From the NCBI GenBank assembly GCA_016196885.1, contig JACPWU010000022.1:8763-40762 (forward strand): a stretch of 32,000 nucleotides of DNA, written 5' to 3'. Of this stretch, positions 1,030 to 27,919 are shown piece after piece. The notes under the pieces are model-generated. The model worked only from the letters and a program-made list of their open reading frames with translations. It did not search any database and was not told the origin of the DNA. The DNA comes from Chlamydiota bacterium. Its GTDB lineage: Bacteria > Auribacterota > JACPWU01. Made by a program: the position numbers and the translations under genes. The first letter of the stretch is position 1. Each line of letters starts with the position of its first letter.

Positions 1030-1515
1030 TCAATCGCAAAAACCTGGAATATTATTTGGATTAAAACAACCTCCGCTTCCTGGATCCGAGCTCGCACCTG
1101 ATCCTTCGATTGAAGACCCGCCAGAGGATGATTCAGGAACAAGATCGCTCTCCTCAACAGAAGGGGACGACTCCGCCTCATCCGAAACCGCAGGCGAAAC
1201 TTTATCCCTGAGAACCTCCTCGCCTAAAAACGTTTGGGCCTCTTCTACTTCCTGATCATAAGGAGGAAGTCCCATCAAAAGCTGAGGAGGAATCATCTCC
1301 CATCGATAAAGCCTTACTTTTTCAATTCTCCACGGACGGTTTAATAAATTTAATTCCTCTTCGATCTTTTGATCCGACAAATAAGAGGGAGAATCTGCAG
1401 TCACACCCTTGCCCAATACACTTAAAAAAAGAGCAACCCAAAAGGTGATTCGAGAATTAAAGATCCCAATAGAATGAAAGCCCATAAATATTCCTCTCAT
1501 ATTCGGCAAAATCAT
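1030..1515 (-). CDS. Small secreted hypothetical protein
   Basis: ORF with a hydrophobic N-terminal segment (ITFWVALFLSVLGKGVTA), an acidic/Ser-rich C-terminal half and two Cys near the end (GGCFNPNNIPGFCD). Start could be 1515, 1500 or 1485. No family recognised. Confidence 0.45.
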   Translation of the reverse strand: MILPNMRGIFMGFHSIGIFNSRITFWVALFLSVLGKGVTADSPSYLSDQKIEEELNLLNRPWRIEKVRLYRWEMIPPQLLMGLPPYDQEVEEAQTFLGEEVLRDKVSPAVSDEAESSPSVEESDLVPESSSGGSSIEGSGASSDPGSGGCFNPNNIPGFCD

Positions 1516-2803
1516 AATTAGAACTTGTCGTCACATAAGTATAACTCAATTCTACCTTCGCCTTCTCGTTCCAAAAATTTCGAGAGAGTCCACCCCCACA
1601 CGTATAGACATCGTCCAATCTCTCTGGATCCGGCGTAAACTCTACATAATCTTCACTCTGGTATTCCACTCGACTGAAAAGCCGAAGCTTCCAAGGAAGC
1701 GCAAGAGAAATAAAACCGCTGATTCGATGGCTCTCCAGACGAAAGACATTTCCCTCCACGTCATTCCACTCAAAAAAATATCCAGGTCCTAAAACCAATC
1801 TGTTTTGGAACAAATAAAAACACTGCTGAGCGCCCACCTCATAACTCAAGCCATCTCTTGAAAAACGTTCTGGAAAATCCGTATCCGTTTCGAAATTTTT
1901 TTCATGTATGCTGATCTTAGGTCTGAAAACAGCCTGATCCAACCATTGAAAATCGAGTCCTGTAGAAGCTTCATATTCTTCGCTGAAATCCTCCCCTCCC
2001 AAACGGATAAAATGATAATTTCCCTGCAAAAAAGCCTGATAAGGGAAATCACCCCACCTGCCCTTGCGCTGTAAAAAAAGCCTTGGAGAATGACTCATGA
2101 CGTCAAAATCTTCCAGGGTCTCTTCCTCATGAAAACTCTCATAAAAGGTGTAACCTCCTCCCCAGGTAAAAGGCTTTCGACCCTCCTTTTGCTCCCAGAT
2201 TCGAAGTTCTATATCCGCGGAGGCAATCAAGCGATAAGACTCTGTGGCGTCATCTCCTTCTACGTGGCGAGAACGTCCCCTCACATTGTCGTCATACTCC
2301 CCTGATAAACGGAGTAAAAAATTCCAGCGCCGATCTTTTTTGCGCACCCCCTCCACTTGCCGAAGACGTTCCAAAACAGGCAAAACTTCCCTGGCCCTTT
2401 GTGCGTAGAGCGAATCCGGAGCCCTCTTTTGAATGTCAGTTAAAAGACGAATGGACTCTGATAAGTCCCCTCGATAAGCGAGCGCCTGAGCCAAGTGATA
2501 ACGGCAAGAAAAACTTTCAGGTTCAATTTTTAAGGCCTCTCGAAAAAGAAGAATGGCCTCATCTTCTTTGTTCAACTCTACAAGGCATATCCCTTTCATT
2601 CGCAGAAGAAAAGGATCTTGGGGACTTTTTTCAAGAAGCTTGTGAATCACTTCAAGGGCAGGGGCATATTCTTTTCTTTTGATCAAATAGGCTGCACTGT
2701 CCCAACCCTCAGTGTCCTGGAGAGCTGCAAGCCAACCCTGAGAGGTTAAAAGAAAAAAAACAAAAAAGAGACGGATCCTTTTTAACAATTTATTCATTTT
2801 CAT
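1457..2803 (-). CDS. TPR-repeat domain fused to a predicted outer-membrane beta-barrel
   Basis: ORF 1457..2866. Start placed at MKMNKLLKRIRLFFVFFLL (2803) because 2804-2866 belongs to a repeated non-coding element. N-terminal TPR-like helices (YAPALEVIHKLLEKSPQDPFLL..., ILLFREALKIEPES...). C-terminal ~300 aa is beta-strand-like and ends YGLSFYWDL. The architecture recalls TPR+porin exporters; no specific family recognised. Confidence 0.55.
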   Translation of the reverse strand: MKMNKLLKRIRLFFVFFLLTSQGWLAALQDTEGWDSAAYLIKRKEYAPALEVIHKLLEKSPQDPFLLRMKGICLVELNKEDEAILLFREALKIEPESFSCRYHLAQALAYRGDLSESIRLLTDIQKRAPDSLYAQRAREVLPVLERLRQVEGVRKKDRRWNFLLRLSGEYDDNVRGRSRHVEGDDATESYRLIASADIELRIWEQKEGRKPFTWGGGYTFYESFHEEETLEDFDVMSHSPRLFLQRKGRWGDFPYQAFLQGNYHFIRLGGEDFSEEYEASTGLDFQWLDQAVFRPKISIHEKNFETDTDFPERFSRDGLSYEVGAQQCFYLFQNRLVLGPGYFFEWNDVEGNVFRLESHRISGFISLALPWKLRLFSRVEYQSEDYVEFTPDPERLDDVYTCGGGLSRNFWNEKAKVELSYTYVTTSSNYDFAEYERNIYGLSFYWDL

Positions 2804-2818
2804 TCTCTTGGCTAATCT

Positions 2819-2920
2819 CAATGATCTTTCGAGATCATCGTATGCGATGAAAGTTCTCCCCATCATGCTTTTTTCGTAGTCGCCCCATTTATGGGGCTGC
2901 CCGATGAATCGGGCGACTAC
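2819..2920. repeat. REP-like element copy A: 57-nt conserved flank (2819-2875) plus 45-nt compound palindrome (2876-2920)
   Basis: Core is GTAGTCGCC CCATTTATGGGGC T GCCCGATGAATCGG GCGACTAC. The flank CAATGATCTTTCGAGATCATCGT.TGCGATGAAAGTTCTCCCCATCATGCTTTTTT matches 26991-27047 with 2 mismatches. Confidence 0.85.
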
Positions 2921-2929
2921 AAAATGAGA

Positions 2930-4060
2930 TTACAAAATTTTGTCCTTCAACTCGCAAAGCCGAGCATGCTCATTCAAAGCAAAGCGATCCGTCATCCCCG
3001 CAATGTAATCGCAGACCACTTGCTGAAGTTGAGCCCCTTTAAGTTTAGCTTGCGTTGTCTCCTTTAAAAGATGGGGACTTGCTTTATAAAGCTTAAAAAG
3101 ATCACATACTACCTGCAAAGCCTGGTCATTCATTTTTTGCACTTGGGGATGGTTGTAAAGATTTTTAAAAAGGAAACTCCTGAGGGCCTGAACAAGACTT
3201 CGCACTTCTGGACTAAAATCCACCACTCTTTGTCGAACCTCCTTTAATTGATCTAGATTTTGAATTTTATTCTGAGCGATCAAATGATCCGTATATTTTA
3301 CCAAATCTGTGACCATGGTATTGATCATGTTACGAACGGTGTAATAGCAGCGAATCTCTGACGAAACCGACGCATGACCCTTGCGAATCGCCTCAAAGGC
3401 GTGATGCCAAAGCTCCACTTGGGCCAAATCCTTTTCACTTAAGAGCCCTGAAGCCAAGCCATCGTCCACATCATGGCAAAGATAGGCAATGTCATCCGAG
3501 AGGTCGGCCACTTGGGCCTCAAGACTGGAAGTATTCGCGGCTTCCCCCGGCCGATGTTTCTGAATTCCCTCCCGAACCTCCCAAGTCAAATTGAGCCCCT
3601 CAAATTGGGGATAGCGCCTTTCTAATTTTTCAATCATTCTAAGCGACTGATGATTGTGTTCGAAACCCCCTGCCTCCTGCATCATCAAATCTAAAGCCTT
3701 CTCCCCGCTGTGCCCAAAAGGAGGATGCCCCACATCATGTGCCAAGGCAATCGCCTCCGTCAAATCTTCATTCAGCGAAAGCGCCCTGGCAATGTTGCGT
3801 CCGATTTGAGCAACCTCCATGGTATGCGTGAGACGCGTGCGGTAATGATCCCCTTCGTGGTTCACAAACACCTGCGTCTTATATTCCAACCGGCGAAAAG
3901 CCCGCGAATGCACAATGCGGTCACGATCCCTTTGAAAAGCCGTGCGCACCGGATGTTCCTCTTCTGGATAAAGACGTCCCTTCGTCTGGCCACTTTTGCG
4001 CGCATAAGGGGCCAAAATTTTTTCTTCAATTTCTTCGTACCCTTGACGTGTCATCAACAT
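2930..4060 (-). CDS. dgt: dGTP triphosphohydrolase-like HD-domain protein
   Basis: Motifs FQRDRDRIVHSRAFRRLEYKTQV, HYRTRLTHTMEVAQIGR and AHDVGHPPFGHSGE. The ORF extends to 4201, but that part crosses the der 3' end and a heptamer hairpin. Likely start MLMTRQGYEE (4060 or 4054). Confidence 0.85.
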   Translation of the reverse strand: MLMTRQGYEEIEEKILAPYARKSGQTKGRLYPEEEHPVRTAFQRDRDRIVHSRAFRRLEYKTQVFVNHEGDHYRTRLTHTMEVAQIGRNIARALSLNEDLTEAIALAHDVGHPPFGHSGEKALDLMMQEAGGFEHNHQSLRMIEKLERRYPQFEGLNLTWEVREGIQKHRPGEAANTSSLEAQVADLSDDIAYLCHDVDDGLASGLLSEKDLAQVELWHHAFEAIRKGHASVSSEIRCYYTVRNMINTMVTDLVKYTDHLIAQNKIQNLDQLKEVRQRVVDFSPEVRSLVQALRSFLFKNLYNHPQVQKMNDQALQVVCDLFKLYKASPHLLKETTQAKLKGAQLQQVVCDYIAGMTDRFALNEHARLCELKDKIL

Positions 4061-4061
4061 A

Positions 4062-4124
4062 AGTCCATAGTCCATGGTCCATAGTCGACAGTCCACAGTT
4101 TTAATGGACCATGGACTATGGACT
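4062..4124. repeat. Heptamer array H1 forming a perfect 21-bp hairpin
   Basis: AGTCCAT AGTCCAT GGTCCAT AGTCGAC AGTCCAC (4062-4096), then ATGGACC ATGGACT ATGGACT (4104-4124), which is the exact reverse complement of 4062-4082. The der stop codon (4116-4118) lies inside the right arm. Confidence 0.9.
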
Positions 4125-5438
4125 GCTTCTTTTTCGCTTCCCGCTTTGATAAACAAATTTAATAGGCGATCCCTCAAACCCAAAAAGCTTTCTAAATTCA
4201 CGCTCCAAAAAGAACCGATAGGACTCCTTCACGAAACTGGCTTGATTCACATGAATATGAAACTCCGGAGGATGACTTGCCGCCTGCAAAATTCGATCAA
4301 ATCGAGGCATGTGCCCTTCTTCACTGGGCGGCTGGCGAATGGCGAGAAAATTTTCTAGAAATGTTTCCAATTCCTCATCTGAAATTTTCCTCCTTCCACT
4401 TTCATCCACTTGAACAATCTTTTCAATTAGATTGTCTATCTGAAAACCTGTGAGGGCGGAGCAAAAAAGAATGGGATAAATATCTAAAAATTTCCATCTC
4501 TCTCGTAAAGCCTTCGTGTATTCACTTTTTTGAACCTTCTTCACCAAATCCCATTTATTGAGAACCAAAACACAGGCCTTATAACGTTTTCGAATCTCAT
4601 TCAAGATGCGAATGTCTTGAGCCGTCACGCCCTCAGCCCCATCGGTCATCAACACAGTTAAATCTGCCCTTCGAATGCTCTTCAGGGAACGCATCACGCT
4701 AAAAGTTTCGGGCCCCATTTTGACTTGATTTCTTCGCCTCATTCCTGCGGTATCCACAAAAGTGAAAAGATGATTCTTAATTTTAATAGAAACATCAATG
4801 GAATCGCGGGTTGTACCGGGAACGGAATCTACAATCAAGCGCTGCTTTCCTAAAAGGAAATTGATCAGCGTGGATTTTCCCACGTTGGGTTTCCCGACCA
4901 CCGCTACTTTAAGAGAAGATATTTCCTCTTCTTCAATTTTTCCCAAATGTTTTGTCACTTCATCTAGAAGTTCGGCAATGCCGACCCCATGGATGGAAGA
5001 AATCATAAATACAGATTTAAAACCAAAGCTATAAAATTCTTGTGTGTTTTCTTCCATATTAGGATGATCGACTTTGTTCACCACGAGAATCATTTTCTTC
5101 CCAGAACGGCGAATCCAAGCTGCAACCTCATCATCCAAGGGCGTCACTCCATTCTTTGCATCCACAATCAAAAGAACAAGAGCCGCCTCTTCCAAAGCCA
5201 TTTTGACCTGCTCGTGCACTTGACGGTGAATAGAATCCTTCTGACTCTCATCCACTCCTCCCGTGTCTACCAGGCGAAGAGAAATTCCATTCCAGGTGAG
5301 ACGAGCCTCCACGCGATCCCGCGTAATCCCAGGCTCCTCATGAACAATGGAAATACGCCGACCGATCAGACGATTAAAAAGAGTGGATTTTCCAACATTG
5401 GGACGGCCGATGATGGCAACGATGTTTTTCGAGTTCAC
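4116..5438 (-). CDS. der: Ribosome-biogenesis GTPase Der (EngA)
   Basis: Two tandem GTPase domains with P-loops GRPNVGKSTLFNRL and GKPNVGKSTLINFL, plus a KH-like C-terminus. GTG start overlaps the pgsA stop (GTGA). Confidence 0.95.
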   Translation of the reverse strand: MNSKNIVAIIGRPNVGKSTLFNRLIGRRISIVHEEPGITRDRVEARLTWNGISLRLVDTGGVDESQKDSIHRQVHEQVKMALEEAALVLLIVDAKNGVTPLDDEVAAWIRRSGKKMILVVNKVDHPNMEENTQEFYSFGFKSVFMISSIHGVGIAELLDEVTKHLGKIEEEEISSLKVAVVGKPNVGKSTLINFLLGKQRLIVDSVPGTTRDSIDVSIKIKNHLFTFVDTAGMRRRNQVKMGPETFSVMRSLKSIRRADLTVLMTDGAEGVTAQDIRILNEIRKRYKACVLVLNKWDLVKKVQKSEYTKALRERWKFLDIYPILFCSALTGFQIDNLIEKIVQVDESGRRKISDEELETFLENFLAIRQPPSEEGHMPRFDRILQAASHPPEFHIHVNQASFVKESYRFFLEREFRKLFGFEGSPIKFVYQSGKRKRSSP

Positions 5439-6037
5439 AGAGAGAGCACCTTACCGCTTCCATTCAATTGTCTGCTTCCATAAATAAGATAACCGATCCA
5501 AGAGGCAAAGGTAGCTATGGCCGCAATCCATATTGGAACATCCGCATGAGGCCACTTCAATAAAATCCAGAAAACGGTGACCATTTGAGAAAAAGTCGTG
5601 ACCTTACCCAAAACGCTTGGAACGATTTTCACACTTCCATTTAAAATATGAATCAACAAAGCTCCTAACGTAATAAACACATCTCGAGAAATGACAAGCA
5701 CGACAAACCAAAACGGCAAGCGATTCTGCAAGGCATGATTGGGAAGTGCCAAAAGAATGATGGCCGACGTTAAAAGTAATTTATCCGCCAGAGGATCCAG
5801 AAAAGTTCCCAAGCGTGTTTGCTGGTGTCGCGTACGCGCGATAAAACCATCTAACGCATCCGTCAAAATGGCAATTCCAAAAGAGAGCATGGCCCCAATT
5901 CTAAGCCACTCGCTCTTGAACGCATCCGACTCTAAATAGCCCAAAAGCAAAACGACAAACAGAGGAACGAGAAAAATACGCCCCAAGGTAATACGATTGG
6001 CTAAGTTTAATGTAGATTTCTTGAGTTCTGCTTCCAT
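5435..6037 (-). CDS. pgsA: CDP-diacylglycerol--glycerol-3-phosphate 3-phosphatidyltransferase-like protein
   Basis: CDP-alcohol phosphatidyltransferase motif DALDGFIARTRHQQTRLGTFLDPLADK and multiple TM segments. Start at 6037 (MEAELKK...) or 6067. Confidence 0.8.
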   Translation of the reverse strand: MEAELKKSTLNLANRITLGRIFLVPLFVVLLLGYLESDAFKSEWLRIGAMLSFGIAILTDALDGFIARTRHQQTRLGTFLDPLADKLLLTSAIILLALPNHALQNRLPFWFVVLVISRDVFITLGALLIHILNGSVKIVPSVLGKVTTFSQMVTVFWILLKWPHADVPIWIAAIATFASWIGYLIYGSRQLNGSGKVLSL

Positions 6038-10091: not shown

Positions 10092-10119
10092 CACGACTCA
10101 CCCCTCACGACGCACGACT
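10092..10119. repeat. Heptamer array H6
   Basis: CACGACT CACCCCT CACGACG CACGACT. On the sense strand it reads TAG TCGTGCG TCGTGAG GGGTGAG TCGTGAG TAA, starting at the oxidoreductase stop codon. Confidence 0.8.
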
Positions 10120-13100
10120 ATTTTCCACTGTTGATTTTGACACCCTCTATGGAAGCAGAAGAAGGTGTCAATCTCTTTGAATGGGGAGATGAAGTCCCCA
10201 AAAGCTCACTCACTTTGAGTTTGGCCTCATCCATTTTGGGATAGCGCACTTGGCGATAGCCTCGGACCTCTTCAGGGGTTTGAAGGGCCTGAACATAGAG
10301 ACGATAGGAGGCTTCTTCCTGAAAATCAAAATTGTCTACCAAGTCAGAATACCATTGTCGAAAATCTTTTTCTGCCTTGTGCCATTGGGGAAGGATCTTT
10401 CTCAAAAATTTCAAATGTTTCATAATATTGAGCTGCCAATTCTGGGTCACAATGTCAAATTCGATATTCCAGGGGCCTATTTTAAATTGTGGCCGATTGA
10501 TGTGGCGATAAATCAACCGATCTCCTGCATGATGGATGTTGTAGCGTTCCTCATCCCTCCTCTTCTTTTCCACACTCGTCAGTAAATGGGCCACATAAAC
10601 TTCGTCCTTGATTAACATCACCTTGGCCAAATTAAAAAGCGCTGCCTTTGTGGCTTGGTATTGCAGTTCCAACCGGTCTTTGTGATAGACAGAAAGAACT
10701 TTTTCTACATAATTTTTCGCATAAGCTACGTTTTCATATTGAATGAGATCGTAAACACGAAGGGCAAAATGACGCAAGGTCTCATCGTCTAAAACCAATT
10801 GTGTCAAGGCTCCCTGAACGATCTCCCGATAAACCTTGGAGCGGTAACTTCCCTGCCAACCCCGACCTAGAATTTTTTCTTTCTCTTCAAAAAGAGCTTG
10901 AAAACCTTTGGGCTGATTTTGCTTCTCAAAAAATTCTCTCGAAAGAACCATGCGCCGACCTACATTAAAAGCCAAAATATTTCTCTTCAAATCGCTGTGA
11001 ATGGTATCTTGAATCGCCCCCAAAATACTTTCCAGACTCAAAGGGAGTAACCCCTTTTGAAAGGCCGCACCCAGCATCACCAAATTGACGTAGAGCTTAG
11101 ATCCCAAGTATTTTTCTGAAACGTCCGAGAAATCAAAACCGTCATAATAATCCTTGCGCGTGTATTTCTTCAGCAACCCTTCTAATTCGTCAAGTGAAAA
11201 ATGGTCCAGGCCCATGAGACTTCGAATGGTGGGCGTTTTGTATAAATTAACAAAGGCCACGGTCCGGTCCGGACTTCCCATGCGTAAATGCATTCGAGAA
11301 TCCAAGGCCCGAACGGCCTCCAAGGCGTCTAATCCCCAGAGCAAATCGGCCTTTCCATTGGGAATCACTTGAGAAACAGGCAAAGGTCCCTTGAGAAAAC
11401 TGATTTCGGAATAGACCCCTCCGTTGCGAATCGCTAAACCCTTCTTGTCGCAGAAAAGGACGTGATAACCTTCCTTCATCCCGGCATGAACCAAGATAGA
11501 AGTGAGAACCCCAATTCCCATTCCTCCCACGCCCGCAACATAAGTGTGCCACTGGTCCTTGATTTTCCAATAGACGGGTGAAGAAAAATGATCCAGATCC
11601 AATTTTTTCAAACGATCTTCCGGTTTCCCCGATCGCTTCACAATCACCTTTTCAAAAGAGGGGCAGACCTTGACCTTGGTGCAAGCGGTATCTGCCACAC
11701 AAGTGGAAAGATCCGTCACAATTTTGGGACCGTAATCCGTCTCCTCCACCGTGAGTCCGGGACATCCTGTAGATTTCGTACACTCCAAACAATATTCGCA
11801 AACTTGAGGTGTGATATTGACAAATTCTTCCCTAGGCAAATACCCCTTCTCCCGAATGGTCCGACCCTTCTCTCGACGAACCCGGCGGTGATAGGTAATA
11901 CCGCATTCTTTATCCGCAATTAGAACCTTGACACCGTCCTGTAAAATGGTCTCTTCCAAAATGTCCCGATACTGCGTCCGATAAGCCGGATTAACCCGCA
12001 TCACTGGAATGGTGCCATCATGCGTCATCCCCTTCAAAACATGCTCGATGTCCTGGGCAAAGGTAGGACGGCCTAAAATATCGGTATCAGACTCAGGCGT
12101 GGGCTGATGACCCGTCATGGCCGTGGTTTTATTATCCAAAATAATGTAGGTGATATCTTGATGATTCTTGACCGAATCAGAAATGGCCGCCATACCGCTG
12201 TGAAAAAAGGTGGAGTCTCCCATGAACACCACTTGCTTATTCACAATAAAAGGATCAATGCCTGCCCCTGTTCCCCCGCCCAGACCCATGCCAGAATAAT
12301 TGTGCATCAATTCTTGATTGGGCTCGAACATCAACATGGTATAACAGCCGGTATCCCCATGAAAAAGCAAGTCCACGGGATTTGTTTCATGACGAGCTTT
12401 CATGTATTTGGGATCCCGAAAATCTTTCTTAATTTCGATCAGCACACTAGAAGAATCGCGGTGGGGACATCCCGGACAAAAAGTCGGCGTGCGAAGAGGT
12501 ATTTCAGCAGAAAAATTTCCTACCGCTTCAATCAAGGCCAATTCACTTTTGATCCTTGCCTTATTCATTCCCTCAACAGGAAATCGCAAAAAGAGCGGGC
12601 CCAAATGTTCTATCAAAATAGAGGGATTGAGCCCACGTGTGGCTGGAATGCCAGAAAGTCCTTCCGGAAAAGATTTTCCCCAGATTTTCGGTGAAATCCA
12701 ATTGGAATGCCTTTGAGAAGCATCCTTCAAAAGAGAAGTGATTTGCTCTTCAATAAATCCTCTCTTCTCTTCAATCACAATAATGTTTTTCACCTGATTG
12801 GCAAAATCCAAAACCAATTCTGGATCCAGAGGATACGTAATCCCTAATTTTAAAATGGGAAAATGCGCCTGAAGCCCCATTTCCAAAAGCGCATGTTCCA
12901 AATAGCTGTACGCGAGACCCGAACTGACGAATCCAAAATCGCTCAGGCCTTGAGCAGGATAATGAATGACATTCACCCTTTTTTCGCGACATAAACGATG
13001 AAGCTCTCTAAAGCGCCCCTCTAAATCTTCTTCTCGACGTGCAGTTCGGGGCGGCAAAAGAACCGTATCGGCCACCGGAATTTTTCGCGTGTCTAATTCC

Positions 13101-13708
13101 ACTTTGTGATGAAGGTTAATGCGAGGATACTGGTTCGGATAAACCTCGACCATGCCTCCTCCATCCGCTTGATTGGTCGTGACAAGATAAAGAATATAGA
13201 GGTTGGAATCCCGAGACAGTTCAAACGCCCATCTCACCCAGTCTTTTAATTCCTGAAAAGAACTGGGCTCCATCACGGGAACTTGAAGATGCCGAGAAAT
13301 AAATCGGGTATCGGCTGGCACCTGTGTGCTGTCGGTCCAAGGGTCATCGCCTACGACCACAATAGCCCCGCCTTTTTTCCCAAATTTAGAAAGATTTCCC
13401 AGGGCCAAACCGTCTGAGGCCACATGCGCCCCGACGCTTTTCATCACGGCCATGGCGCGAATGTCTTCCATCTGGGACCCATTCAGGCGGGCTACGCTCA
13501 AGGCCTCATTGTTGGCGAGCTGGGCCAAAATCCCATGCTCCAGCAAAAGCTCCTTGATGCTGGAGGCCACATCAAAAACGTCCGCTACAGGTGACCCCGG
13601 ATAACCCGTCATCAGGCTCACCCCAGCCTCCAAGGCCCCTTTCACAAGAAGCTCATTGCCGTTAAAAACCTCTAGCCCTTCTGATTTCGTAAAACGCTTG
13701 TCCATCAT
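10118..13708 (-). CDS. Indolepyruvate/2-oxoacid:ferredoxin oxidoreductase, fused alpha-beta form
   Basis: 1196 aa. N-terminal GNELLVKGALEAGVSLMTGYPGSPV, CPGCPHR, TPP-binding GDSTFFHSG, and Cys clusters CEYCLECTKSTGCPG / CTKVKVCP. Confidence 0.85.
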   Translation of the reverse strand: MMDKRFTKSEGLEVFNGNELLVKGALEAGVSLMTGYPGSPVADVFDVASSIKELLLEHGILAQLANNEALSVARLNGSQMEDIRAMAVMKSVGAHVASDGLALGNLSKFGKKGGAIVVVGDDPWTDSTQVPADTRFISRHLQVPVMEPSSFQELKDWVRWAFELSRDSNLYILYLVTTNQADGGGMVEVYPNQYPRINLHHKVELDTRKIPVADTVLLPPRTARREEDLEGRFRELHRLCREKRVNVIHYPAQGLSDFGFVSSGLAYSYLEHALLEMGLQAHFPILKLGITYPLDPELVLDFANQVKNIIVIEEKRGFIEEQITSLLKDASQRHSNWISPKIWGKSFPEGLSGIPATRGLNPSILIEHLGPLFLRFPVEGMNKARIKSELALIEAVGNFSAEIPLRTPTFCPGCPHRDSSSVLIEIKKDFRDPKYMKARHETNPVDLLFHGDTGCYTMLMFEPNQELMHNYSGMGLGGGTGAGIDPFIVNKQVVFMGDSTFFHSGMAAISDSVKNHQDITYIILDNKTTAMTGHQPTPESDTDILGRPTFAQDIEHVLKGMTHDGTIPVMRVNPAYRTQYRDILEETILQDGVKVLIADKECGITYHRRVRREKGRTIREKGYLPREEFVNITPQVCEYCLECTKSTGCPGLTVEETDYGPKIVTDLSTCVADTACTKVKVCPSFEKVIVKRSGKPEDRLKKLDLDHFSSPVYWKIKDQWHTYVAGVGGMGIGVLTSILVHAGMKEGYHVLFCDKKGLAIRNGGVYSEISFLKGPLPVSQVIPNGKADLLWGLDALEAVRALDSRMHLRMGSPDRTVAFVNLYKTPTIRSLMGLDHFSLDELEGLLKKYTRKDYYDGFDFSDVSEKYLGSKLYVNLVMLGAAFQKGLLPLSLESILGAIQDTIHSDLKRNILAFNVGRRMVLSREFFEKQNQPKGFQALFEEKEKILGRGWQGSYRSKVYREIVQGALTQLVLDDETLRHFALRVYDLIQYENVAYAKNYVEKVLSVYHKDRLELQYQATKAALFNLAKVMLIKDEVYVAHLLTSVEKKRRDEERYNIHHAGDRLIYRHINRPQFKIGPWNIEFDIVTQNWQLNIMKHLKFLRKILPQWHKAEKDFRQWYSDLVDNFDFQEEASYRLYVQALQTPEEVRGYRQVRYPKMDEAKLKVSELLGTSSPHSKRLTPSSASIEGVKINSGK

Positions 13709-13784: not shown

Positions 13785-13829
13785 GTAGTCGCCCGATTCA
13801 TCGGGCAGCCCCATAAATGGGGCGACTAC
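13785..13829. repeat. REP-like compound palindrome copy B
   Basis: GTAGTCGCCCGATTCATCGGGCAGCCCCATAAATGGGGCGACTAC, the exact reverse complement of core A. It sits inside a larger segment bounded by imperfect inverted repeats CCCGCATTTCATC (13727-13739) and GATGAGAAATGCGG (13918-13931). Confidence 0.85.
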
Positions 13830-13933
13830 AAGGGTGATTTTCATCCCCCTTTGTGACTGAAAGGATCCCCGATAAAAACACTCGGGGATGACAAGCTGTA
13901 GGCATTTTGAGCTCGTGATGAGAAATGCGGTTT

Positions 13934-13961
13934 AGTCGCTCGTCATTCGTATTTCGTACAG
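13934..13961. repeat. Heptamer array H5
   Basis: AGTCGCT CGTCATT CGTATTT CGTACAG, about 40 nt downstream of the nadK stop. Confidence 0.7.
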
Positions 13962-14000: not shown

Positions 14001-14870
14001 TTAGGATGGTTTCGTAACAGTTCCACGCCAACCCAATTTCTCTCGAAGAATTTCAAAATAGCAATTTTTCAGTCGAATCAAAGGAATGGTCCTTGCGCCC
14101 TCTTTGATCTCGACCGCATCCCCTTCCTTTAAATCAAGCCCGAGCTGGCCATCCAAGGTGAGACCCACTCCCTGGGAGCTCGAGGTCAATTGAACACGAA
14201 CAGTCTGGTCATGAGAAAGGACCAAAGGACGGTTCGAGAGCGTGTGAGGGCAAATAGGTGTGATGAGCATCACCTGACAATGAGGAACCACGATAGGTCC
14301 ACCGCCTGAAAGGGAATGGGCCGTAGAGCCCGTTGGCGTCGCAACAATCAAACCGTCCGAACGATAAGTGGTCAAATATTCTTCATCCACAAAAACATCC
14401 AGGCTGAGCATCCGAGAAAGGGCCCCCTTGGTAATCACCGCATCATTCAGAGCCTCGTAAGACCGCTCCTTCCCCCCTTTTCGAAGGCGGCGAATTTGCA
14501 GCGTCTCCCGTTCATCTATTTCAAAATCACTTTTTAGAATTTTCCCGAAGCCCTTCAAAAATTCTGCTGCTGAAAATTCCGTCAAAAAACCCAAGCCACC
14601 TAAATTCACACCCAAGACAGGCAAATTCGGCCGAGAGACACGCTTCACTGCCTGAAGCAAAGTTCCATCCCCCCCCAAGGCCACCAAAATATCGGCCTCG
14701 CGGGTCAACTGGGTATCCGTTCGATAAAGATCCTTTCGCGCCAAAGACAAGGCCAAAAAGCGATCCAAAAAGATCATCACGTCTTTCTTACGAGAGATTT
14801 TCTTGAGCAGTTTCCCCACCACTCGAGGGGCATGAATTTTATGGGGGTTTGAAAGAATGGCAATTTTCAT
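14001..14870 (-). CDS. nadK: NAD+ kinase
   Basis: GGDGTLL motif, NDAVI, TPTGSTAHSLSGGGP. Confidence 0.9.
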   Translation of the reverse strand: MKIAILSNPHKIHAPRVVGKLLKKISRKKDVMIFLDRFLALSLARKDLYRTDTQLTREADILVALGGDGTLLQAVKRVSRPNLPVLGVNLGGLGFLTEFSAAEFLKGFGKILKSDFEIDERETLQIRRLRKGGKERSYEALNDAVITKGALSRMLSLDVFVDEEYLTTYRSDGLIVATPTGSTAHSLSGGGPIVVPHCQVMLITPICPHTLSNRPLVLSHDQTVRVQLTSSSQGVGLTLDGQLGLDLKEGDAVEIKEGARTIPLIRLKNCYFEILREKLGWRGTVTKPS

Positions 14871-17341: not shown

Positions 17342-17350
17342 CTTTAAAAC

Positions 17351-17424
17351 CGTCGTTCGTTGTCTGTCGTTCGTCATCCGTCAGTCGTTTCAACGAAATA
17401 CGAGTAACGAACGACGGACGACGG
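17351..17424. repeat. Heptamer array H3 forming a long imperfect hairpin
   Basis: CGTCGTT CGTTGTC TGTCGTT CGTCATC CGTCAGT CGTTTCA, then ACGAAAT ACGAGTA ACGAACG ACGGACG ACGG. CGT-phased units switch to ACG-phased units at the apex (17389-17392). The array fills the receptor-stop to tonB-start gap. Confidence 0.85.
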
Positions 17425-19923: not shown

Positions 19924-19972
19924 TTTTTCGTCGTTCGTTGTTCGTCGTTGGTCGTTCGTATTTCGTAGATAC
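19924..19972. repeat. Heptamer array H4 abutting a start codon
   Basis: TTTTTCG TCGTTCG TTGTTCG TCGTTGG TCGTTCG TATTTCG TAGATAC, immediately 5' of the cobS-like ATG (19923-19921). No SD. Confidence 0.85.
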
Positions 19973-20159: not shown

Positions 20160-20350
20160 TTTTTTTATTCACCCAGGTCTTCTGGCTCCCCAGCCCTTTT
20201 GACTGCCTTCCCAATCCAACCCAATGTCAGACCAGTGGCTCCTTCTTCGTCAAAAGGTTCCTTTCTCTTTCGAGAAAGGACTAGGTTACAGCGGCGGGGC
20301 CGCTCCGGATTCTAACCGGATTCCCTTAGAGTAAACGCGACCAGTAAACT
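20160..20350 (-). promoter_or_regulatory. Cobalamin (B12) riboswitch aptamer
   Basis: Minus strand contains CTAAGGGAATCCGGTTAGAATCCGGAGCGGCCCCGCCGCTGTAACC, then GAGCCACTGG...TTGGGAAGGC, then the B12-box-like GAGCCAGAAGACCTGGG. Order and sequence parallel the E. coli btuB leader elements. Confidence 0.85.
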
Positions 20351-24472: not shown

Positions 24473-24545
24473 GGGCGATTAGCTCAGCTGGTAGAGCGCC
24501 ACGTTTACACCGTGGATGTCAGAGGTTCGAGCCCTCTATCGCCCA
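24473..24545 (+). tRNA. tRNA-Val (anticodon TAC)
   Basis: Cloverleaf read by hand: acceptor GGGCGAT/ATCGCCC, D arm GCTC-AGCTGGTA-GAGC, anticodon arm CCACG-TTTACAC-CGTGG, variable ATGTC, T arm AGAGG-TTCGAGC-CCTCT, discriminator A. CCA is not encoded. Confidence 0.9.
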
Positions 24546-26776: not shown

Positions 26777-26990
26777 ATCATACCTCTTTACGAAACAATC
26801 CCCTGAGCCACAGGAACTGCCGTAGCCGCAAGAACCCCATAGCCTTCCAAGACATGGATCAAAGGAAGCGCTGCCTCAGGGATTTGGAAACCAACTCATT
26901 ATATAAGACATCCTGACCTAAACCCAGCAATTTCAATTGAATTTATAAGAGGGTCATAGGATAATCTTCTCATTATGAAAATATCAATTT

Positions 26991-27115
26991 CAATGATCTT
27001 TCGAGATCATCGTGTGCGATGAAAGTTCTCCCCATCATGCTTTTTTTGTAGTCGCCCGATTCATCGGGCAATCCATGCAAGGGGCACACGGCAGCCCCAT
27101 AAATGGGGCGACTAC
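26991..27115. repeat. REP-like element copy C: conserved flank (26991-27047) plus flipped core with a 23-nt insertion (27048-27115)
   Basis: Same flank orientation as copy A, but the core reads GTAGTCGCC CGATTCATCGGGCA [ATCCATGCAAGGGGCACACGGCA] GCCCCATAAATGG GGCGACTAC. It ends 3 nt before the ATG at 27119. Confidence 0.85.
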
Positions 27116-27118
27116 ATA

Positions 27119-27919
27119 ATGAACCTCACTTTCATAGCAAAAATTATTTATATTTTTTTAATTGTCTCATCTCTATCCATTCAAGGATGCGGAAAGAAAG
27201 AAAATGAAAATTCTTCTTCACAAACTCCCACATCCCAAAATAACAAGCCTACTCTTTCCATAGATCCCCAAAAAACGGGAACGATTTCAGGAAAAGTTTT
27301 ATTCAAGGGACAAGCCCTCCAGCCTAAAGAACTTCCCATGGGCGGCAATCCCGAATGCAGCACTTTTCATCAAGGGAAGGCCTATAGCGAAGAGCTTTTG
27401 GTCAAAGACGGCGCCCTGCAAAATGTGTTTATTTACATTAAAGAAGGTCTTGAACAATATTCCTTCACGCCCCCTCAGGAACCTGTAAAATTAAATCAAG
27501 CGAAATGCCTCTATTCACCGCACGTGGTTGGAGTTCAGGTCAACCAACCTTTTATCTTGGTGAACAGCGATCCTACCCTTCACAATGTTCACTCCTATTC
27601 TCAAGCGAATGAAACCTGGAATGTAGGCATGCCCTTTGAGGGGATGGAAGTGACAAAAACCTTTTCAAAATCTGAAATCATGATTACCTTAAAATGTGAC
27701 CTACACCCCTGGATGATAGGCTACGTGGTAGTTCTCAACCATCCTTATTTTGCAGTCACGGATGCCCAAGGACATTTTGAAATTAAAAATCTACCTCCTG
27801 GAAAATACGTGATAGAAGCCTGGCATGAAAAGCTGGGAACTCAAGATCAAACCATTGAAATCAATGCCCAAGAAACAAAAGAACTCGAATTTTCATTCGA
27901 GTTCTCGTCTAAAAAATAA
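27119..27919 (+). CDS. Secreted/lipoprotein-like cupredoxin-type protein with C-terminal carboxypeptidase-regulatory-like beta-sandwich
   Basis: Signal peptide ending LSIQGC. Type-1 copper-like ligand pattern HNVH ... CDLHPWM (compare amicyanin C-x-x-H-x-x-M). GHFEIKNLPPGKYVIEAWHEKLG is typical of CarbopepD_reg-like domains. Confidence 0.55.
   Translation: MNLTFIAKIIYIFLIVSSLSIQGCGKKENENSSSQTPTSQNNKPTLSIDPQKTGTISGKVLFKGQALQPKELPMGGNPECSTFHQGKAYSEELLVKDGALQNVFIYIKEGLEQYSFTPPQEPVKLNQAKCLYSPHVVGVQVNQPFILVNSDPTLHNVHSYSQANETWNVGMPFEGMEVTKTFSKSEIMITLKCDLHPWMIGYVVVLNHPYFAVTDAQGHFEIKNLPPGKYVIEAWHEKLGTQDQTIEINAQETKELEFSFEFSSKK

Follow-up and report, generated by a model that had tools for sequence, protein, structure and literature searches.

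The 32-kb window analysed here, 32,000 nucleotides of contig JACPWU010000022.1 from a Chlamydiota bacterium, contains three copies of a compact palindromic element in which an outer stem encloses two small hairpins, and two of these copies stand in opposite orientations beside the same flanking sequence. The locus thereby raises the question of whether it harbors a virus-like hairpin origin, comparable to the flip and flop configurations of parvoviral inverted terminal repeats (ITRs), or a more common kind of bacterial repeat. We propose, with a probability of roughly 0.85, that the element is a REPIN, namely a doublet of repetitive extragenic palindromes (REPs) tagged with GTAG and arranged head-to-head with the tags outside, which constitutes a unit like the bacterial interspersed mosaic elements (BIMEs) in a member of the Chlamydiota. 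This classification is based on an anatomy that matches the GTAG REPs and head-to-head dimers described in PMC3733652 and the REPINs described in PMC3116915. On this interpretation the striking structure would belong to an ordinary class of bacterial repeats and there would be no need to pursue it as a virus-like replication origin.

The palindromic doublet and its relatives

All three copies were recovered where the original prediction had placed them, at 2876-2920 (copy A), 13785-13829 (copy B) and 27048-27115 (copy C), each of them intergenic, giving a density of 3 copies per 32 kb. Either form of the 22-nt half-element has 6 matches in the window when both strands are counted, as against 0.00 expected from 100 shuffles. 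Copy A, which like the other two copies is assigned no strand as a whole, is a head-to-head heterodimer of two REPs separated by a single T at 2898; its left arm (2876-2897, plus strand) reads GTAG-TC-GCCCCA-TTTA-TGGGGC and its right arm (2899-2920, minus strand) reads GTAG-TC-GCCCGA-TTCA-TCGGGC. In copy B a 1-nt spacer, A, separates a TTCA-loop REP on its left from a TTTA-loop REP on its right, and copy C has the same arms in the same orientation around a 24-nt spacer. Copy A is the exact reverse complement of copy B, with the identity running 2 nt past the element (47/47), and copy C is exactly copy B once a 23-nt spacer segment unique to it (27070-27092, AATCCATGCAAGGGGCACACGGC), which has a GGCA direct repeat at its bounds, is removed. 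The arm sequences are 100% identical in A, B and C, and the two arm forms differ from each other at 3/22 positions (19/22 identical), two of which represent a compensatory swap of G-C to C-G. Each arm comprises a perfect 6-bp stem and a 4-nt loop, and GTAG is present on 6/6 arms within the window. In schematic form the REP consists of (T)GTAG joined by a TC linker to a 6-bp stem that ends in A, followed by a TTYA tetraloop and the complementary strand of the stem, and the outer arms of the doublet constitute a perfect 10-bp inverted repeat, GTAGTCGCCC/GGGCGACTAC.

When folded as single-stranded DNA (ssDNA), the 45-mer assumes a three-way junction with a 6-bp outer stem and two 6-bp hairpins (-15.4/-15.6 kcal/mol, z = -6.4/-5.7). 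The outer stem of this T-shape is formed by the tags and linkers, GTAGTC pairing with GACTAC and the G and C at the junction providing a possible seventh pair, while the inner hairpins are the two REP stem-loops. The T-shaped junction initially described for the element as such is therefore retained for the 45-mer and has to be given up for the 68-nt copy C, for which a long imperfect hairpin is preferred over the three-way junction.

A scan for the family with the degenerate 22-mer GTAGTCGCCCSATTYATSGGGC, across a genome collection with one genome per species, matched at least 51 contigs or loci, where by our own estimate less than one match would be expected by chance. The original prediction had allowed that the three copies of the window might be the only ones; they instead belong to a widespread family. 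Exact 22-mers of the REP occur on at least 51 contigs from metagenome-assembled genomes (MAGs) of more than 10 phylum labels, a distribution that is subject to possible mis-binning of MAGs. The labels among the matches listed are Stahlbacteria, WOR-3, Zixibacteria, Poribacteria, Nitrospirae, Nitrospinota, Planctomycetota, Actinomycetota, Doudnabacteria, Elusimicrobiota and Proteobacteria, and among these same matches the Stahlbacteria MAGs have many contigs per genome with the family. The seed REP in the related loci is usually paired with a second, different REP in inverted orientation. Counting the 3 copies of the window and 30 from the related loci (at least 51), there are 33 head-to-head doublets, and 33/33 combine two different stems. 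Their spacers are mostly 1-3 nt and extend up to 24 nt or more, which places the long spacer of copy C within the normal range of the family. By our count about 28/32 doublets, or 9/12 distinct pair types, combine one TTCA loop with one TTTA loop; this is a tendency only and is not significant when within-genome copies are discounted.

In the 28 distinct monomers GTAG, the T following it, the closing A-T pair and the TT.A loop are fixed and the remaining stem positions co-vary; GTAG is invariant across 30 distinct family sequences, an invariance conditioned on the search by which these were gathered, which required that motif. A T immediately precedes GTAG in 110/122 cases. Double-sided changes are seen at 6/6 stem pairs, with a covariation score of 0.86 versus 0.22 in shuffles. 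As the sequences that entered this score were pre-selected for pairing, the fair test of covariation is offered by the non-seed occurrences of tag and loop, which were not selected for pairing: 60/83 of these have at least 5/6 Watson-Crick pairs compared to about 14 expected, with 50 pairing at 6/6 and 10 at 5/6 positions (expected 5 and 8.5 respectively), and 18 distinct fully paired stems are represented among the 83. No recurrent neighboring protein family was found beside the REPs in the 51 related loci, as is expected for dispersed intergenic repeats, and a literature search with the sequence string returned only unrelated primer matches.

These features can be compared with those of the GTAG REPs surveyed by Di Nocera, De Gregorio & Rocco (2013, PMC3733652), with which the window's REPs share the terminal GTAG, a short perfect 6-bp stem, a small loop, a dinucleotide linker between tag and stem as in the families GTAG-1/2, and intergenic placement, often right after a stop codon. 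The head-to-head heterodimers of that survey likewise have their tags outside, join two different REPs and are the preferred form; some of its families have spacers of 1-2 bp, most have longer ones. On the strength of their text description, none of the 24 published families could be equated with the combination TGTAGTY - GYYYRA - TTYA, and its host range of Chlamydiota and many candidate phyla exceeds the 8 phyla of the survey. The REPINs of Pseudomonas fluorescens SBW25 (Bertels & Rainey 2011, PMC3116915; Bertels et al. 2017, PMC5581495) are similar in that an inverted REP doublet folding as one hairpin is the replicative unit and in that the gene for the REP-associated tyrosine transposase (RAYT) is flanked by the same repeats. 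They differ in being lineage-specific and in having spacers of roughly 70 bp, whereas here the commonest spacer is 1-3 nt, the unit is 45-47 nt and identical 22-mers recur across phylum labels. The REP/BIME elements of E. coli and their enzyme TnpAREP (RayT/YafM) offer further parallels, including a GTAG guide 5' of the hairpin, the inverted pairing of Y- and Z-type REPs as a heterodimer, and an HUH/Y1 enzyme acting on folded ssDNA (PMC3479197, PMC8266576). Unlike the short perfect palindromes with a conserved loop seen here, which are closer to the 'group 3' REPs, whose loop bases are the key determinants (PMC8266576), the REPs of E. coli are of greater length, imperfectly palindromic and bulged.

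These observations document a REPIN family of compact size (45-47 nt) with a (T)GTAGTY tag, a TTYA loop and a recognizable RAYT clade, for systems that are hardly described in Chlamydiota and many uncultured phyla. REPIN-RAYT systems are described as passed on chiefly by vertical descent (bioRxiv 10.1101/2022.05.22.493013), and the exact 22-nt REP found across phylum labels would, if its spread were horizontal, run contrary to the prevailing picture of strictly vertical, lineage-specific descent. Both the cross-phylum identity of the REP and the single pair of copies in opposite orientation bear on how REPINs move and on whether they are horizontally transferred; they are best treated as leads rather than as established results.

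Two further arrangements were noticed among the related loci. Small structured inserts, 20-45 nt long, e.g. CCCCGCTCCTTTATAAGGGGCGTGGGT, occur within the second REP of a doublet, in its loop or its stem, in Stahlbacteria MAGs and related ones (L005 3700-3790; L024 1072-1150 and 4714-4790; also L022, L027, L039 and L042), sometimes with a short duplication of loop bases, and these inserts look like a further tiny element aimed at REP hairpin loops. Separately, L035 has at least 6 REP monomers arrayed head-to-tail in tandem at about 5850-6030, where the spacer is fixed at 12 nt and the period is 34 nt (GTAGTCGCCCRATTYATCGGGC AGGTTTCTCTCT); the spacing is reminiscent of clustered regularly interspaced short palindromic repeats (CRISPR), and its 'spacers' are identical.

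Association with RAYT genes and proposed mobility

A profile-based scan of metagenomes for the RAYT family yielded 80 loci, and at 17/80 of these the gene has on both sides REPs composed of (T/C)GTAGTN, a 5-7 bp stem and a TTYA loop. All 17 REP-flanked loci encode members of a more distant clade of about 200 aa marked by MYEYR...YGKGWD. One of the loci (L104) has head-to-head doublets on both sides of the gene, GTAGTC-A-GGCGATTYATCGCC-gtaagat-GCGCTATGAATAGCGC-GACTAC, and thus reproduces the architecture seen in the window; at another (L123) the REPs have 6-bp stems ending in GA or AA and a TTCA loop. Proteins of the matching clade contain the HUH motif NHYH and the tyrosine motif NYIH(N/Y)NPVKHG. 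Against the NCBIfam RAYT equivalog model NF047646 (cut-off 80 bits) the proteins of L104 (96.7) and L115 (85.9) pass and that of L134 (79.0) falls just below. The genes are single and bracketed by REPs, i.e. they have the REPtron layout, with no tnpB alongside. This clade may correspond to a group of RAYTs from Cyanobacteria and Chloroflexi. REP/BIME elements with their RAYTs had been named at the outset as the nearest bacterial precedent, and with GTAG-tagged arms in the window and REPs of the same architecture flanking metagenomic RAYT genes this precedent has become the probable identity of the element itself. By analogy with characterized systems, we infer that its cognate RAYT is encoded once elsewhere in this genome.

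The sole RAYT-like gene among the 51 REP loci, in the Stahlbacteria contig L005, is flanked by a different REP, GGAGTAG-NNNN-TTYA, and around its closer homologues the flanking hairpins, with a TTYA loop, bear the tag GGAGTAG or, in Chloroflexi, GGATC and are not of the window's family. The L005 protein shows distant similarity to E. coli RayT (E = 2.7e-8) and a weak match to the IS200 model (25.9 bits, under the cut-off). In Stahlbacteria-like contigs REPs consisting of GGAGTAG, a 4-5 bp stem, a TTYA loop and a C flank a 181-aa RAYT clade (NHYH / NYIHNNPIKH), and they form arrays of up to about 10 units (L005 1400-2130; L055-L064 around 2900-3760). The GGAGTAG and GTAGTY families are found in the same MAGs, which implies at least two REP families per genome. 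RAYT homologues in an Anaerolineales MAG (L066-L068) and in a metagenome contig from the Joint Genome Institute (JGI; L069) are flanked by TTYA-loop hairpins with no GTAG tag (L066/L068 1900-2700; L069 1900-2800), those of L066/L068 bearing the tag GGATC, e.g. GGATCGCGGAC-TTTA-GTCCGC. As far as can be judged from these flanks, the wider RAYT clade suggests that the loop is a conserved recognition feature and that the tag varies.

If the element moves in the manner of the studied REP/RAYT pairs, its hairpins would extrude in ssDNA at the replication fork, where a RAYT with a Y1/HUH active site, presumably the product of a single gene elsewhere in the genome, would recognize them by their GTAG tag and loop. 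The expected substrate for binding and cleavage by such an enzyme would be ssDNA bearing TGTAGTC-GCCCGATTCATCGGGC. The RAYT would then cut beside the tag and rejoin the strand elsewhere, and doublets would thereby spread into intergenic DNA without target-site duplication. Given that both strands display a near-identical GTAG-hairpin, either orientation would be open to the doublet, whether it simply resides at a site, is inserted again or undergoes repair from another copy. Published biochemistry, in which the GTAG motif guides the choice of cleavage site and the loop bases are decisive for small REPs that are perfect palindromes (Corneloup et al. 2021, PMC8266576), accords with the invariance of tag and loop in the family.

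The inverted doublet beside a shared flank

The sequences to the left of copies A and C, at 2814-2875 and 26986-27047 respectively, are 59/62 identical with a sharp left boundary, and define a 62-nt module that in both places lies on the minus strand. The sharing of a flank in the same orientation had been recognized in the original prediction, which put its length at 57 nt instead of 62 nt; its further claim that the two hairpins follow each other in opposite order beside this flank is fully confirmed, for relative to the flank the elements A and C have 7 mismatches when compared in direct register and 0 once one of them is inverted. On the minus strand the module folds as two small hairpins. 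At locus A it lies between the REPIN and the probable start (M22/M24) of the gene 1457..2866(-), and at locus C it is followed only by a 21-codon remnant of a reading frame. The shared flank is probably non-coding, a 5' untranslated region or an intergenic leader, because the 469-aa open reading frame (ORF) 1457..2866 most likely starts at M22/M24 (MKMNKLLKRIRLFFVFFLL), giving a typical signal peptide. On the right side the heptamer AAAATGA at 2921-2927 resembles ATAATGA at 27116-27122, which includes the ATG of the gene 27119..27919 (neither heptamer is assigned a strand); as 6/7 positions are alike (P about 0.0015), the homology between A and C appears to span the REPIN. The arms are unchanged in all copies, whereas the flank of A and C has diverged at 3/62 positions (about 5%), and the copies, as judged from their sequences, appear to be young relatives. 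A 23-nt core of the shared flank had 0 matches in JGI metagenome contigs. At locus A an 8-bp inverted repeat, TAATCTCA/TGAGATTA, at 2813-2820 and 2925-2932 additionally encloses module and REPIN and pairs in the predicted transcript fold; it is probably fortuitous, as it is not conserved at locus C.

What looks like flip and flop is a heterodimer with arms of 19/22 identity, placed in one orientation or the other. The most likely explanation for A and C is the insertion or replacement of such a near-symmetric doublet, in either orientation. The starting point would be an intergenic module of roughly 70 nt with a REPIN site, present in two copies. At locus A the doublet would have been inserted, or replaced from a short-spacer master copy (identical to B), in the opposite orientation, either through RAYT-mediated excision and insertion or through repair or gene conversion from an ectopic copy that can pair either way. 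A single replacement event is favored since it explains the inversion and the difference in spacer together.

Certain observations weigh against this reading and against the underlying REPIN assignment. In the 51 related loci each shared-flank cluster keeps one REP type adjoining the flank, the sole variation being one monomer variant of a different REP type and not a flip; as other shared flanks thus retain their REP type, a flip beside a conserved flank is unusual for the family and needs a special event. Independent insertion at the identical site in two copies of the module would, moreover, presuppose a strong target preference. No Y1/HUH protein, be it a RAYT or another transposase, was found within the 32-kb window, in agreement with the earlier remark that it lacks a transposase, and the transposition of REPINs has never been fully reconstituted, model species included (PMC8266576).

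The principal competing account is that the doublet inverts in situ at a fixed locus, A and C being two states of one ancestral unit of flank and element, by way of recombination or template switching across the 10-bp outer repeat, of RAYT cut-and-rejoin, or of a parvoviral-like hairpin transfer. Such an inversion would account well for a homology that spans the insertion point (59/62 on the left and 6/7 on the right), for the exact inversion of the element between A and C with 0 mismatches after inversion, and for outer arms that are perfect inverted repeats. It does not account for the 23-nt spacer segment by which A also differs from C, and the identity of A and B including 2 flanking nt points to copying from a short-spacer lineage rather than to simple inversion of a C-like ancestor. 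A simple inversion is rated less likely because it requires a second event, a 23-nt deletion between the GGCA repeats; further, no other flank cluster in the 51 related loci contains both orientations, and on balance we regard in-situ inversion as unlikely. Its hairpin-transfer variant, which the original prediction had put forward on the model of parvoviral ITRs, fares worst. Parvovirus-type hairpin transfer depends on a Rep nickase and on a linear replicon that ends in a hairpin, and the ITRs of adeno-associated virus (AAV), about 145 nt long and located at the termini of a linear ssDNA genome, acquire flip and flop from terminal resolution by Rep68/78. The element resembles these ITRs in having an outer stem that encloses two small hairpins and two configurations related by inversion of the inner part, but it is 45 nt long, multi-copy, internal to a bacterial chromosome, absent from viral contigs and has no Rep nearby. 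The copies are 11-13 kb apart and internal to a 40.9-kb chromosomal contig among housekeeping genes; no Rep/NS1, invertase or integrase domains were detected among the window ORFs scanned, and the element pattern gave 0 matches in 2.9 million viral contigs. Lacking a terminal hairpin of a linear replicon, a Rep and a viral match, hairpin transfer is not supported; a parvoviral-type ITR is disfavored by the internal location of the copies, and a viral origin is rejected on account of the 0 viral-contig matches. We would also give little credence to a broader version, in which REPIN orientation is dynamic at a fixed site, through the RAYT or hairpin processing at the fork, and is coupled to horizontal spread of a REPIN-RAYT lineage across phyla. 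If it were true, the A/C pair would be a natural footprint of excision and re-ligation or of inversion, and a chromosomal analogue of ITR flip/flop.

Other alternatives concern the nature of the element itself. It might be a miniature inverted-repeat transposable element (MITE) or palindrome-associated element derived from IS200/IS605, moved by a TnpA(Y1) with or without TnpB and not by a domesticated RAYT. RAYTs are homologous to IS200 TnpA, the L005 protein weakly matches the IS200 model at 25.9 bits, below the cut-off, and the two systems have in common subterminal hairpins that bear a guide tetranucleotide on the 5' side (PMC8266576). The likeness to the IS200/IS605 elements IS608 and ISDra2 further includes recognition of ssDNA hairpins by a Y1 HUH enzyme and the absence of target duplication (PMC8266576). 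Those elements, however, encode their own transposase, have non-equivalent left and right ends on one strand and insert in one orientation relative to the target, whereas the element of the window is non-autonomous and near-symmetric, with two equivalent GTAG-hairpins on opposite strands and no distinct ends on one strand. As the enzymes flanked by such REPs also pass or nearly reach the RAYT equivalog model, not IS200, and their genes are single, REP-bracketed and without tnpB alongside, we consider an IS200/IS605 derivation highly improbable. A host regulatory element, such as an intrinsic terminator, an mRNA-stabilizing stem-loop, a translation-modulating structure or an operator, is brought to mind by the position of A 9 nt past a stop codon and of C ending 3 nt before a start codon, by the very stable fold in transcript context (-52 kcal/mol, z = -6.0) and by the effects of E. 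coli REPs on mRNA stability and termination (PMC3733652). Yet consensus scans found no terminator- or promoter-like site at A or B, and the sites near C lie outside the element and are near the shuffle expectation; the element has no Rfam match, E-value-mode Rfam scans around A and C giving only chance-level matches; A and B face opposite ways relative to transcription; and a gene-specific operator is difficult to reconcile with the occurrence of the same 22-mer next to unrelated genes in MAGs of more than 10 phylum labels. The lack of a terminator or promoter at A and B and of an Rfam family, together with the opposite orientations, renders a primary role in RNA regulation very unlikely. Side effects on neighboring genes are plausible, given the proximity of A and C to stop and start codons, and would be compatible with the element being a REPIN. 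Finally, only the geometry bounded by inverted repeats and the occurrence of two orientations would suit a switch inverted at the outer repeats by a serine or tyrosine site-specific invertase. The segment to be inverted would span 25 bp and contain neither a promoter nor coding sequence, the window ORFs scanned include no invertase or integrase, and no gene family recurs as a neighbor in the 51 related loci, so that such a switch is scarcely conceivable.

Genomic setting of the copies

The REPIN copies are embedded in an unremarkable chromosomal environment. Copy A is located 9 nt downstream of the stop codon of an HD-domain (dGTPase-like) gene, 2930..4201(-), and has on its other side the TPR outer-membrane-type gene 1457..2866(-). 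Copy B lies between the genes for NAD kinase, 14001..14870(-), and indolepyruvate:ferredoxin oxidoreductase, 10118..13708(-), and is oriented oppositely to A relative to transcription; a Logan contig carrying the NAD kinase gene ends about 70 nt before this copy. The end of copy C is 3 nt upstream of the ATG that opens a lipoprotein-like gene, 27119..27919(+). An exact-protein look-up of the 469-aa and 266-aa products at loci A and C found no record. The sizeable ORFs of the window are all ordinary chromosomal ones, encoding the Der GTPase, an HD phosphohydrolase, GltX, indolepyruvate oxidoreductase, NAD kinase, a TonB system, TerC, aconitase and others. Among them are three ATPase genes of the AAA_14/DUF4143 or ATPase_2/DUF234 type and an AbiEii-type nucleotidyltransferase. 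At the gathering level the only Rfam matches in the window are a tRNA gene at 24473-24545(+) and a cobalamin riboswitch at 20175-20326(-), the latter upstream of a cluster coding for a CobS-like protein, a TonB-dependent receptor and TonB.

Two other repeats were observed in the window. A second dispersed intergenic repeat, CGT-rich (e.g. TTCGTCGTTCGTCATTCGTATTTCGTA) and without the GTAG tag, occurs at 13932-13958, 17350-17423 and 19927-19972, and forms an inverted pair of its own at 17350-17417. Its copies bracket the cluster of the TonB-dependent receptor, TonB and the cobalamin riboswitch, and one of them is about 100 nt from copy B. The other, at 4062-4124, is an inverted repeat of two perfectly matching 21-nt arms, AGTCCATAGTCCATGGTCCAT ... 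ATGGACCATGGACTATGGACT, around a 21-nt loop; it contains GTCCAT-like repeats inside its arms, overlaps the stop codon of der (4116..5438, minus strand) and lies upstream of the HD-domain gene.

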